A DNA stretch of 44,752 bases from a virus (Duplodnaviria; Heunggongvirae; Uroviricota; Caudoviricetes), in the IMG/VR virus record IMGVR_UViG_2671180296_000008, positions 1-44,752 of that record. One strand, written 5' to 3'. Made by a program: the position numbers and the translations under genes. Below the pieces are notes generated by a model. It made no database searches and was not told where the DNA came from. It saw only the letters and a list, made by a program, of their open reading frames with translations. Positions within the stretch are counted from its first letter, which is position 1. Every line of letters starts with the position of its first letter. Below, one piece after another: positions 23,522 to 42,780 of the stretch.

Positions 23522-24007
23522 TTATTTCAGTTCGTTACCAGGCATTTCTTTTAGCTCTTTCAAATGACAACGATTGAGACTAAACCACTCCCCGTGCGAC
23601 CTATAGTTGTAATATTTTTGGTGCAATTTGGTTTCAAGCTCTCTATCGGCCGGAATCTTTGCAATTAGATTTAGCTTCCCACCACTCATGCGAGATATCT
23701 CTGAAATCCGTTTATTAACTCTGCGACTAAACCCTATTTTTGTTAGCCCACTATCTTCAGCATGCAGAACGTACACATATGATTTTTGCGAAGCACTGGG
23801 TGCGACTTTGTTGTAATTAATCATGTCAAACATGAAGCCTTGCTTTAGCAAAGTTTCAAAAAAGATAGAATTAACACACCCATTCCTTCTCAGCTCTGCA
23901 CTTAGCTTGTCAATTTCCTCTATGATGTCGCCAGACCCCTTTCCACTTATAAGAAAATCTTGGTACATGCGACCAATTCTTGAGGTAATTTCAACAAAGT
24001 TATTCAT
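23522..24007 (-). CDS. T5orf172/GIY-YIG-like domain protein (moron; candidate nuclease)
   Basis: C-terminal SYVYVLHAEDSGLTKIGFSRRVNKRISEI...HGEWFSL fits the T5orf172 (GIY-YIG-like) pattern by recollection; AT-rich; unrecognised N-terminal ~75 aa. Confidence 0.55.
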   Translation of the reverse strand: MNNFVEITSRIGRMYQDFLISGKGSGDIIEEIDKLSAELRRNGCVNSIFFETLLKQGFMFDMINYNKVAPSASQKSYVYVLHAEDSGLTKIGFSRRVNKRISEISRMSGGKLNLIAKIPADRELETKLHQKYYNYRSHGEWFSLNRCHLKELKEMPGNELK

Positions 24008-24789: not shown

Positions 24790-25262
24790 ACCTCAATCTC
24801 TCTGACCGCTCCGCCAGCTTCTTTGAATTTTGCAATCAGGCTGTCAGCCTTATGCTCGAACTGACCATAACCAGCGCCCGGCAGTGAAGCCCAGATATTG
24901 CTGCAACGGTCGATAGCCTGACGGATATCACCGCGGTCAATCATCGGCAAAGCGCCACGCTCCTTAATCTGCTGCAATGCCACAGCGTCCTGGCTTTTGG
25001 GAGAGAAGTCTTTCAGGCCAAGCTGCTTACGGTAGGCATCCCACCAACGGGAAAGAAGCTGGTAACGTCCGGCGGCTGTTGATTTGAGTTTTGGGTTTAG
25101 CGTGACAAGTTTGCGAGGGTGATCGGAGTAATCAGTGAATAGTTCTCCCCCTACAATGACGTCATAACCATGATTTCTGGTTTTCTGACGTCCGTTATCA
25201 GTTCCCTCTGACCATGCCAGCATATCGAGGAACGCCTTACGTTGATTATTGATTTCCACCAT
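24786..25262 (-). CDS. R: Endolysin R (lambda-type lytic transglycosylase)
   Basis: [39 protein letters not shown]... matches lambda R by recollection. Confidence 0.9.
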
Positions 25263-25569
25263 CTTCTACTCCGGCTTTTTTAGCAGCGAAGCGTTTGATA
25301 AGCGAACCAATCGAGTCAGTACCGATGTAGCCGATAAACACGCTCGTGATATAAGCGAGATTGCTACTTAGTCCGGCGAAGTCGAGAAGGTCACGAATGA
25401 ACCAGGCGATAATGGCGCACATCGTTGCGTCGATTACTGTTTTTGTAAACGCACCGCCATTATACCTGCCGCGAAGGTACGCCATTGCAAACGCAAGGAT
25501 TGCCCCGATGCCTTGTTCCTTTGCCGCGAGAATGGCGGCTAACAGGTCATGTTTTTCTGGCATCTTCAT
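25246..25569 (-). CDS. S: Holin S (lambda-type, dual start)
   Basis: [39 protein letters not shown]... matches lambda S107/S105 by recollection. Confidence 0.9.
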
Positions 25570-26031
25570 GTCTTACCCCCAATAAGGGGATTTGCTCTAT
25601 TTAATTAGGAATAAGGTCGATTACTGATAGAACAAATCCAGGCTACTGTGTTTAGTAATCAGATTTGTTCGTGACCGATATGCACGGGCAAAACGGCAGG
25701 AGGTTGTTAGCGCAACCTCATGCCACCCGCTTTCACGAAGGTCATGCGTAGAAGGCCGCAGCATAACTATCACTGATGAGTTCAGGATAGCCAGTGGCTA
25801 CGGCTCAGTTTGGGTTGTGCTGTTGCTGGGCGGCGATGACGCCTGTACGCATTTGGTGATCCGGTTCTGCTTCCGGTATTCGCTTAATTCAGCACAACGG
25901 AAAGAGCACTGTATGTTGCCGGGCCAGATGTCGGCTGCACAGGGAGTCATTGCCGACCCACGCCCTAAACACGCTCGTAAATGCGCTTAGGGTTGTCTCC
26001 CCTGGTATCCAGTTATTCCCCGGCTGGGGAT

Positions 26032-26085
26032 ACTCCGCGCGACGCTAATGCGTTTCGTCCCTCATGGACTCGTCAGGCGCGCAAT
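26032..26085 (-). ncRNA. Hammerhead ribozyme motif, type-I topology (stems II and III closed, stem I open)
   Basis: Minus-strand RNA UUGCGCGC-CUGACGA-GUCC(AUGAG)GGAC-GAAA-CGC(AUUA)GCG-UC|GCGCGGAGU; all conserved core positions present; predicted cleavage after GUC between plus coordinates 26041 and 26040. Confidence 0.6.
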
Positions 26086-26354
26086 GCTCTTACCTGTTGT
26101 GTGCCCATTATTAATCACACCGGGCCAGTGCGCCGAATTTGTTTACAAGGAGTCGGAAGACCTTGCTGACTTACAGGCTATTACGCCGCCATCAGAACAA
26201 CATCATCGTTTGCATTTATCTTTGTGGTCAGTTTCTAAAAAACCGCAAAGTCGCCAACTCTGACGAAAACTATCGTTGTGCTGCCACAACGATAAGAGCA
26301 CTCGGTGCATTTAAGCCAAGCCCCATAAGGGAGAATGCTCTTACCTGTTACACA

Positions 26355-26418
26355 GATATAAAAAATCCCGAAACCGTTATGCAGGCTCTAACTATTACCT
26401 GCGAACTGTTTCGGGATT
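26355..26418 (-). terminator. tR'-like terminator of the short 6S leader transcript
   Basis: AAUCCCGAAAC ... GGUUUCGGGAUUUUUUAU hairpin plus U-run, positioned as in lambda downstream of pR'. Confidence 0.55.
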
Positions 26419-26558
26419 GCATTTTGCAGACCTCTCAGCCTGCGATGGTTGGAGTTCCAGACGATACGTCGAAGTGACCAACTAGGCGGAATCGGTAGTA
26501 AGCGCCGCCTCTTTTTATCTCACTACCACAACGAGCGAATTAACCCATCGTTGGGTCA

Positions 26559-26587
26559 AATTTACCCAACTTTATTCAATAAGTCAA
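26559..26587 (-). promoter_or_regulatory. Late promoter pR' (-35 TTGACT, 17-bp spacer, -10 TAAATT); Q-utilisation region nearby
   Basis: Minus-strand TTGACTTATTGAATAAAGTTGGGTAAATT immediately downstream of the Q gene. Confidence 0.6.
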
Positions 26588-26629
26588 TATCATGCCGTTA
26601 ATATGTTGCCATCCGTGGCAATCATGCTG

Positions 26630-27253
26630 CTAACGTGTGACCGCGTTCAAAATGTTGTCTGCGATTGACTCTTCCTTGTGGCATTGCACCACCAGAGCGT
26701 CATACAGCGGCTTAACAGTGCGTGACCAGGTGGGTTGGGTAAGATTTGGGATTAGCATCGTCACAGCGCGATATGCGGCGCTTGCTGGCATCCTTGAATA
26801 GCCGACACCTTTGCATCTTCCGCACTCTTTCTCAACAACTCTCCCCCACTGCTCTGTTTTGGCTATATCAACCGCACGGCCTGTACCGTGGCAATCTCTG
26901 CATCTTGCGCCCGGCGTCGCGGCACTACGGCAATAATCCGCATAAGCGAATGTTGCGAGCACTTGCAGTACCTTTGCCTTAGTATTTCCTTCGAGCTTTG
27001 CCACACCACGGTATTTCCCCGATACCTTGTGTGCAAATTGCATCAGATAGTTGATAGCCTTTTGTTTGTCGTTCTGGCTGAGTTCGTGCTTACCGCAGAA
27101 TGCAGCCATACCGAATCCGGCTTGTGATTGCGCCATCCCCATAGCAGCCATCACATCAGTACCGGAAAGAGAGTCAGAAGCCGTGGCCCGTGGTGAGTCG
27201 CTCATCATCGGGCTTTTTGGCGAATGAAATTTAGCTACGCTTTCGAGTCTCAT
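26630..27253 (-). CDS. Q: Late antiterminator Q (lambda-type)
   Basis: [52 protein letters not shown]... matches lambda Q by recollection. Confidence 0.9.
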
Positions 27254-42736: not shown

Positions 42737-42780
42737 TTGCCTGATTTGCAGGTTCGATTCCCTATTCGGAGATAGCACTC

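Follow-up and report, generated by a model that had tools for sequence, protein, structure and literature searches.

A lambda-like prophage was found to carry, between its genes Q and S, what is probably an island of small-RNA genes put into the lambda-type leader of the late operon right after the terminator tR'. The prophage lies in IMG/VR virus record IMGVR_UViG_2671180296_000008, whose 44,752 nucleotides (nt) were analysed as a whole and are called the window here. This reading, in which conserved stems, a hammerhead ribozyme and, in relatives, transfer RNAs (tRNAs) punctuate the transcript, is given a probability of roughly 0.6. The evidence comes from a stem whose arms covary among unrelated phages, from an RNA of about 175 nt (module A) with a start-less frame resembling that of transfer-messenger RNA (tmRNA), and from a hammerhead joined to a conserved four-helix RNA.

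The late genes of the prophage are located on the minus strand. The Q-S spacer measures 1,060 nt, compared with 677 nt in lambda (J02459), an enlargement that had already been pointed out in an initial annotation of the DNA. In blastn comparisons with lambda, window positions 26930..26334 matched lambda 44209-44805 (97%) and window positions 25911..25270 matched lambda 44844-45485 (98%). The 38-nt hairpin loop of lambda is replaced in the window by 422 nt (26333..25912), and lambda 44787-44806 is found a second time as the 20 nt at 26101..26082. The terminator tR' is identical to that of lambda, and the island begins 10 nt 3' of it. All downstream parts of the island have the late promoter pR' as their source of transcription, in a region 97% identical to lambda 44209-44805; since read-through of tR' from pR' needs Q, the island would be expressed together with the late genes. 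A protein-coding explanation was rejected, as none of the five open reading frames (ORFs) of the region, on either strand, had a Pfam match and the homologues carry frame-breaking indels. The features of the region are:

27253..26630, minus strand: gene Q
26587..26559, minus strand: late promoter pR' (TTGACT, 17-nt spacer, TAAATT), from a promoter scan
26418..26364, minus strand: hairpin and U-tract of terminator tR' (inverted repeat with 15-nt arms, 93% complementary)
26353..26284, minus strand: hairpin 1, with left arm L1 (26353..26333), a loop of 29 nt (26332..26304) and right arm R1 (26303..26284)
26294..26271, minus strand: junction hairpin, perfect over 10 base pairs (bp), UAUCGUUGUG-GCAG-CACAACGAUA, then UUUUCGU
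26274..26102, minus strand: module A, about 175 nt, between the hairpins, starting with GAUAGUUUUCGU and containing the conserved motifs GCGACUUUGCGG and UUUAGAAAC
26101..26082, minus strand: left arm L2 of hairpin 2, CACAACAGGUAAGAGCAUUG, a duplicate of lambda 44787-44806
26081..26035, minus strand: candidate type-I hammerhead (Rfam Hammerhead_1, RF00163; 24.7 bits, below the family gathering score of 34; E = 0.003 in the 1.4 kb searched)
26040..25912, minus strand: four-helix pseudoknotted RNA, about 120 nt, beginning at the predicted hammerhead cut
25911..25892, minus strand: right arm R2 of hairpin 2, CAGUGCUCUUUCCGUUGUGC, at which lambda homology resumes and continues into S
25569..25246, minus strand: gene S, followed by R and Rz

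A conserved stem with exchangeable loops

Lambda carries the hairpin once, directly after tR', as GCACAACAGGTAAGAGCATTG, 38 nt and CAGTGCTCTTTCCGTTGTGC, starting 8 nt past the U-tract of tR'. The stem comprises about 20 bp, i.e. 7 bp, a bulged A, 2 bp, a U.U mismatch and 10-13 bp. Such arms were found around variable loops in P1, Jersey-like siphoviruses (C1), G7C-like podoviruses (24-32N) and many prophages, and also in Vi1-like myoviruses (Magnus) and the T7-like Enterobacter phage SDFMU_EhYP; the loci with the stem span six unrelated phage types. The 95 loci examined yielded 140 stem-loop units, in which 67 different arm pairs were counted, and covariation was computed on 32 clean distinct arm pairs (alignment A3). 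Paired bases occupied 94.1% of cells, whereas shuffles reached 86.4% and slid partners 36-59%, and both-sided changes occurred in 10 of the 19 arm base pairs; none of 500 shuffles matched these values of pairing and covariation. Examples are the changes from AAGAGCAUUG/CAGUGCUCUU to AAGCUGCUUG/CAGGCAGCUU, AAGGGUAUUU/AAGUACCCUU and AAGGGCGCUG/CAGCGUCCUU. The arms thus covary far above chance in related phages. G.U and U.G pairs are frequent in the stem, and one U.G (columns 21/32 of alignment A3; window positions 26083/25909 and 26334/26301) is kept in 25 of the 32 arm pairs, with covarying neighbours. Because of these frequent wobble pairs and the one conserved U.G, the helix appears to be selected as RNA in the sense of the late transcript, and the alignment indicates that the stem is under RNA-level, strand-specific selection. 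In the commonest loop family bearing a T-arm, this conserved U.G falls on position 3:70 when the unit is read in the tRNA-like register; being U3.G70, it has the alanine identity pair the other way round.

The loops fell into 30 k-mer clusters, two of which were artefacts from spurious matches of the permissive arm search; the remaining 28 or so are genuine unrelated families, all of which fold with the long stem. Among them are a 27-nt loop, to which hairpin 1 of the window belongs, that of lambda, several units with a GGTTCGAATCC T-arm and the hammerhead module. Stem-loop units also occur in arrays interspersed with tRNA genes, and the stem often lies just 3' of an intrinsic terminator, as it does after tR' in lambda, after the terminator that follows the capsid gene in EhYP, and at loci L164, L174 and L166. 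In mEp506, tRNA-Asn and tRNA-Thr fill the slot after tR' (L184 376-531); the same pair of tRNA genes was seen in place of the post-tR' hairpin in mEp506, HK446 and Kapi1. A further short conserved module, GGUGAAUGCGCAGGCUGAUGCGC, forming a small hairpin, was noted 3' of the right arm in many phages (e.g. L004, L005, L026, L163 and L180), but not in lambda or the window.

Within the window, the arms occur twice. In agreement with the initial annotation, the 16-mer AATGCTCTTACCTGTT was found in exactly two copies (26083-26098 and 26334-26349), and its inverted partners CACAACGGAAAGAGCACT (25893-25910) and CACAACGATAAGAGCACT (26285-26302) are present; in shuffled sequence a mean of 0.41 matches to the 16-mer was obtained even with 3 mismatches permitted. 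The loops, which had been estimated at about 30 and 170 nt, measure 29-31 nt and about 172 nt, and the perfect hairpin likewise described was recovered, with arms at 26271-26280 and 26285-26294 around a loop of 4 nt. RNAfold of minus strand 26355..25885 (471 nt), the check that had been suggested, returned both long helices, the perfect hairpin and the hammerhead fold, with a minimum free energy (MFE) of -168.5 kcal/mol (z = -3.1). Separate folding gave -27 kcal/mol for hairpin 1 (z = -2.8), -26 kcal/mol for the arms of hairpin 2 (z = -4.8) and -33.2 kcal/mol for the lambda hairpin (z = -4.0).

The left arm of hairpin 1 is that of lambda, while its loop and right arm are not; the loop belongs to a family with 20 occurrences in related loci. 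The junction hairpin reuses the outer part of R1 and was terminator-like in the scan, and the same arrangement, with a GCGA loop, was found in L015. From its sequence it looks like a joint of recombination between a right and a left arm. The left arm and loop of hairpin 1 (26341..26321, AGAGCAUUCUCCCUUAUGGGG) were also observed to be 76% identical, in direct orientation, to the initiation region of S (25598..25578, AGAGCAAAUCCCCUUAUUGGG); this likeness, which takes in a small CCCC-UUAUU-GGGG hairpin, may be due to chance.

Module A and its tag frame

Module A had been missed in the initial annotation. It matched 758 phage records with 72-94% identity, 209 of them at a coverage of at least 80%, and is spread over lambda-like prophages, P1 and Jersey-, G7C-, Vi1- and Felix O1-like phages. 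A wider query of 481 nt (25880..26360), which besides module A spans both hairpins and the hammerhead module, had matches in 621 of 5,426 complete E. coli genomes, i.e. in roughly one in nine, with 264 places on plasmids. No annotation was found at module A among the matches listed. In C1, Sf18 and Omen a sigma-70 promoter (TTGACA-17-TA...T) is located directly 5' of AGUUUUCG, and in Sf18 and Omen the next gene after module A is a tRNA; from this position of the promoter and of the tRNA, module A is taken to be a discrete RNA product of about 200 nt. In Felix O1-like and Erwinia phages it lies between tRNAs. The leader of the ban operon in P1 (L002 1552-1760) was seen to hold a homologue of module A with the stem, preceded by an annotated 'dicF-like region' and followed by tRNA-Asn and tRNA-Thr; the 'dicF-like region' merely abuts the match, and this label was rejected as its identity. 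The elements within module A are:

26213..26178, minus strand: start-less tag frame, GCA AAC GAT GAT GTT GTT CTG ATG GCG GCG (ANDDVVLMAA), then TAA TAG
26165..26161 / 26150..26146, minus strand: helix H1, 3' of the tag frame
26156..26153 with 26136..26133, minus strand: pseudoknot
26125..26122 / 26106..26103, minus strand: hairpin H2, with loop GGUGUGAUUAAUAAU

The tag frame has neither a start codon nor a Shine-Dalgarno sequence. A conventional upstream ORF was excluded, because the window has an in-frame UAG seven codons before the tag and lineage-specific frame-shifting indels occur upstream. UAAAU directly before the GCA resume codon is invariant, and the start-less frame thus follows a resume motif of the tmRNA type. 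With a search anchored outside the tag, the variants ANDDVVLMAA, ANDDLMLMAA, ANDEQFLAVA, ANDDQFLAVA, ANEERFLMAA and ANEEMYLAVA were obtained; other lineages have ANDDLMMVAA (P1), ANDNVFLAVA (Felix O1-like Sf18) and ANDAQFLAVA (Erwinia phage Omen). Every variant is 10 codons long and is closed by an invariant TAA, after which the bases are highly variable. Variation within the frame peaks at third codon positions (122) and is lowest at second positions (42). Synonymous codon differences numbered 222 in the tag frame; the two alternative frames had 41 and 88 and are interrupted by stops in 20/20 and 18/20 variants. Replacements are conservative (V/I/L/M, D/E, A/V), and the coding pattern holds across P1, Felix O1-like and Erwinia phages. 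This variation indicates that the tag frame is under codon-level selection, and selection of the coding type argues for its being decoded.

The helices 3' of the frame were paired in 88% of cells, with both-sided changes in 10 of 14 pairs, figures that include misaligned P1-type rows. Variation of the helix and pseudoknot includes CCGA/UCGG, CCAG/CUGG and GUCG/CGAC, and the loop of H2 is conserved as GGUGUGAUUAAUAA among homologues. A possible upstream equivalent of PK1 (CUUUG/CAAAG) is out of register in some lineages.

Several traits are common to module A and tmRNA. The 10-codon A-N-D-D-...-A-A tag with its TAA stop resembles ANDENYALAA of E. coli tmRNA, U and A stand at positions -5 and -4, a helix and a pseudoknot follow the frame, and the 'AACAnAA' linker is that of the alpha and permuted tmRNA models. 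The resume consensus agtaaatgcaaacgatga of permuted tmRNAs called by ARAGORN in aquatic viral contigs (L014, L037) is nearly identical to GAUAAAUGCAAACGAUGA of module A. In Rfam searches the window gave 26.3 bits with tmRNA_permuted (gathering score 47) and 17.2 bits with beta_tmRNA (gathering score 84), both below threshold; the sub-threshold local matches, to the permuted, alpha and beta models, all lie over the tag segment, and the same weak matches were obtained in three of the four homologues fetched first (L003, L004, L005). Unlike tmRNA, module A has no acceptor stem, T-arm or CCA, has its own promoter at AGUUUUCG in three phage groups, carries tags ending in MAA, VAA or AVA instead of LAA, and stays below every Rfam tmRNA gathering threshold. 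ARAGORN, run with and without introns in search of a tRNA-like domain, found no tmRNA in the window or in homologues from enterobacterial phages, whereas in the same scan it did call permuted tmRNAs in other viral contigs. A separate scan for a 7-bp acceptor, NCCA and T-loop within 800 nt returned solely the neighbouring tRNAs, and outside the host tRNA-Arg gene and the copy of it at the att site, no tRNA-like T-arm is present in the window. Similarity to E. coli ssrA beyond the tag was not significant (score 25, compared with 21.4 +/- 2.9 in shuffles), and nucleotide homology of module A to ssrA was rejected for this reason. Given the sub-threshold scores, the missing tRNA-like domain and the ssrA similarity at shuffle level, module A is called tmRNA-like and was not filed as a tmRNA.

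Other ways of completing a tmRNA were rejected. A one-piece molecule made of module A and the arms, with the right arm as 5' acceptor strand and a G3.U70 pair, is ruled out because C1, Sf18 and Omen start at their own promoter without a right arm and P1 has G-C at the position in question. For a two-piece molecule with the T-loop-bearing loops as acceptor piece, these loops have the normal order of tRNA elements instead of a permuted one, and none is scored by the Rfam tRNA model. Pairing of module A with host tmRNA was rejected as a mode of action as well, the duplex energy being no better than that of shuffled sequence. In Omen (L182), an unannotated RNA at 1255-1420, directly 5' of the promoter of the module A homologue, was observed to have the shape of a tmRNA tRNA-like domain, with a 7-bp acceptor (GGGUGAU/AUCACUC), a long helix replacing the D and anticodon arms, a GGUUCGAAUCC T-arm and GCCA. 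ARAGORN made no call on L182 1255-1420. As a general partner of module A this RNA was rejected, since, real as it is, it is confined to 36 phiEa21-4-like records.

We tentatively propose, as a possibility less probable than the island itself, that module A is the mRNA-like half of an unrecognised phage trans-translation system. It would be a tmRNA-derived template that has no tRNA-like domain of its own and is loaded on stalled ribosomes during lytic growth with the help of host tmRNA-SmpB or another tRNA-like partner, so that proteins would be tagged with ...LMAA, ...MVAA or ...LAVA instead of ...ALAA; the stem and its swappable loops (tRNA-like units, the hammerhead with the four-helix RNA) would form a shared maturation toolkit. 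Complete phage-encoded tmRNAs are already known (PMC9004378). A literature search found no description of the tag sequence, of such a tmRNA-like phage RNA or of a hammerhead in the lambda leader. Rfam 15 has no family for module A, the four-helix RNA or the stem, and they are unannotated in GenBank and RefSeq records. Three things appear to be new here, judged from sequence: a template resembles tmRNA but has no tRNA-like domain, a hammerhead comes with a partner RNA of its own, and phages share a processing stem whose loops are swappable. If the proposal holds, hundreds of enterobacterial phages would carry a new variant of a ribosome-rescue system, and a testable question would be whether protein tails of the AANDDVVLMAA type appear during infection and whether they depend on SmpB.

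The hammerhead and the four-helix RNA

The initial annotation had placed a hammerhead in the 170-nt loop closed by the second helix. The helix does enclose a hammerhead candidate; most of the loop, which had been passed over, is a conserved four-helix RNA. The elements of both are:

26081..26077 / 26040..26036, minus strand: hammerhead stem I
26076..26070, minus strand: hammerhead core CUGACGA, with GAAA at 26056..26053
26069..26066 / 26060..26057, minus strand: hammerhead stem II
26052..26050 / 26045..26043, minus strand: hammerhead stem III
26024..26019 / 25923..25918, minus strand: P4, closing helix of the four-helix RNA
26012..26009 / 26005..26002, minus strand: P5
26001..25997 with 25946..25942, minus strand: pseudoknot of the four-helix RNA
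25992..25979 / 25976..25963, minus strand: P7
25957..25952 / 25935..25930, minus strand: P8

The hammerhead went unreported in the gathering scan of the whole window. Its core is complete, CUGACGA(G) ... GAAA ... GUC being aligned to all core positions of RF00163, and homologues keep the core with GUC or GUA; the cut is predicted after C26041. Stem II varies as GUCC/GGAC, GUUC/GAAC and GUCUU/AAGAC and stem III as CGC/GCG, UAC/GUG and CGCU/AGCG, while stem I is invariant. A type-I hammerhead is thus indicated by the catalytic core with its NUH triplet and by three helices with covariation in II and III, and in separate folding the MFE structure was the hammerhead fold.

Among nine diverse sequences, the hammerhead and four-helix RNA together had 98.8% of cells paired, compared with 36-48% in slid-partner controls, and 18 of 48 pairs had changed on both sides. 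The four-helix RNA is built of a closing helix, three hairpins and a pseudoknot, and in the pseudoknot four of five pairs covary. No Rfam family matched this RNA. The variation of the apical loop of P7, with its conserved (A/G)CGAG, does not fit an anticodon loop, and this identity was rejected. Homologues of the hammerhead module were found in 4 GenBank phages and 19 IMG/VR contigs. Lambdoid prophages have them whether or not module A is present. In SDFMU_EhYP the module is enclosed by the same arms and separates the capsid gene from the tail-tube gene; in Pectobacterium and Dickeya phages it lacks arms and immediately precedes tRNA-Met, and in large uncultured phages it lies between tRNAs, as in L168 and L175. 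In every homologue the hammerhead is joined to the four-helix RNA via the 3' strand of stem I.

Hammerheads in prophages are already known (Perreault et al. 2011, PMC3088659). The present one agrees with them in its full core, in its three stems with stem I open and in an intergenic phage position that fits the processing of a long transcript. It differs in its constant fusion to a conserved 120-nt four-helix pseudoknotted RNA, in being nested in the loop of a conserved stem or in tRNA clusters and, compared with the type-I hammerheads of Rfam, in a sub-gathering score. If the module works as predicted, this would be a rare case of a bacterial hammerhead with a nameable, testable product, the strongly covarying partner RNA.

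Transcript processing, rival explanations and prophage context

Q-modified RNA polymerase would read from pR' through tR', whereupon the two stems would form and both would be cut by host RNase III, and the hammerhead would cleave itself after C26041. The predicted products are a tmRNA-like RNA of about 200 nt (module A), whose 10-codon frame ANDDVVLMAA would be decoded, a four-helix pseudoknotted RNA of about 120 nt with a ribozyme-made 5'-OH end, and a late mRNA with a processed 5' end, parted from the 6S/qut leader. The 3' end of the four-helix RNA would be set by the stem in the window, and by RNase P at the next tRNA elsewhere. Since relatives hold tRNAs or tRNA-like units, as well as the hammerhead, at the same positions, this suggests that stems, hammerhead and tRNAs are interchangeable punctuation that would free module A and the four-helix RNA and trim the leader of the late mRNA.

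By its two turns the stem would be of the right size for RNase III: its 19-22 bp of double-stranded RNA are mostly Watson-Crick, interrupted by a single bulge and a single mismatch, and it is present in the MFE structures and covaries. It shares this imperfect two-turn helix with RNase III processing stems such as the T7 intergenic sites and the leader-trailer helices of ribosomal RNA (rRNA), and like the latter it brackets stable RNAs. It is unlike RNase III stems in general in that one stem sequence is common to unrelated phages, with about 28 loop families and a conserved U.G. Its arms and position are identical to those of the late-leader hairpin of lambda (44786-44863), which is present there in one copy and in the window in two. 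RNase III sites in lambda late RNA are reported in a Virology paper (Daniels et al. 1988, 167:568), which is reference 49 of PMC7547250.

The species 1 and 2 RNAs of T4 are stable non-tRNA RNAs inside a phage tRNA cluster. In Felix O1-like, Erwinia and uncultured phages, module A and the hammerhead RNA likewise lie between tRNA genes, so that RNase P and 3' processing would define their ends. There is no sequence evidence of kinship with the T4 RNAs, and the window differs in being punctuated by hairpins and a ribozyme instead of tRNAs.

Some points weigh against this account of the island and its products. RNase III cleavage, ribozyme activity and use of the tag frame in trans-translation are inferred. 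RNase III alone leaves unexplained why the stem sequence keeps about 85-90% identity across unrelated phages. The hammerhead scores below its Rfam gathering threshold, and tertiary contacts for fast cleavage are not evident. Module A has no recognisable tRNA-like domain, so that the sole known decoding route for a start-less tmRNA frame is not evident from its sequence.

The absence of such a domain, together with that of a start codon and a Shine-Dalgarno sequence, would also fit module A being an ordinary small RNA that pairs with other RNAs or sponges a protein, its frame an untranslated relic of tmRNA ancestry; the insignificant ssrA similarity beyond the tag (25 vs 21.4 +/- 2.9) and the sub-gathering level of every Rfam hit point the same way. 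We regard this as doubtful, because an untranslated relic would not be expected to vary so much more at third than at second codon positions (122 against 42), to accumulate 222 synonymous differences in the tag frame against 41 and 88 in the others, or to keep a constant length of 10 codons with conservative replacements and an invariant TAA before highly variable bases, and this in lineages as far apart as P1, Felix O1-like and Erwinia phages.

The initial annotation had taken the region for a duplicated structured-RNA cassette. That it is structured RNA on the minus (late-transcript) strand and not random spacer is borne out; the duplication is not. A tandem duplication of a cis-acting stem-loop cassette, acting for instance on how stable the S/R/Rz message is or how it is translated, the ribozyme being simply carried along, would account for two near-identical arm pairs in direct order, for the exact 16-mer repeat and for a 471-nt segment that folds better than shuffles (z = -3.1). 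It is nevertheless unlikely, since the loops and the inter-hairpin sequence are mutually unrelated and each part, the intervening module included, has independent homologues in unrelated phages. Lambdoid phages also hold partial combinations, namely the hammerhead loop without hairpin 1 and module A (L176, L164, L174) or the left part of the island, with hairpin 1 and module A, before other second-hairpin loops (L011, L027). These independent homologues and partial combinations point to modular acquisition via recombination in the arms; lambda has one such hairpin, and imported modules would travel flanked by arms, hence the two copies. Such shuffling exactly at the arms is what DNA-level sites of a mobile element would also produce, i.e. 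terminal inverted repeats of miniature inverted-repeat transposable elements or attC-like hairpins whose RNA structure is incidental. The outer boxes GCACAAC / GTTGTGC do resemble the inverse-core and core of attC (RYYYAAC / GTTRRRY), and the junction hairpin (26294..26271) resembles a right-arm/left-arm joint. This explanation is improbable, as the frequent G.U pairs, one of them conserved, would be A.C mismatches on the other strand or on the bottom strand of a cruciform, and selection is therefore strand-specific and at the RNA level; moreover, no target-site duplication was seen, and the variable part is the hairpin loop, not a cassette adjoining the R' box as in integrons. Should the island reading hold, the much-studied late leader of lambda would be a place where small-RNA genes can be exchanged, inside a conserved processing stem that is present in lambda too.

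In the wider window, a tRNA-Arg(CCT) gene was observed at 2870-2944 on the plus strand, and its 3' part (TTGCAGGTTCGATTCC) recurs on the same strand at about 42745-42765, some 40 kb apart. The two copies are probably attL and attR of a prophage integrated into the tRNA gene. Downstream of Rz, an ORF at 23522-24007 on the minus strand encodes 161 amino acids with a YVYVL...GLTKIGFS...KR motif and is possibly related to GIY-YIG or T5orf172 domains.

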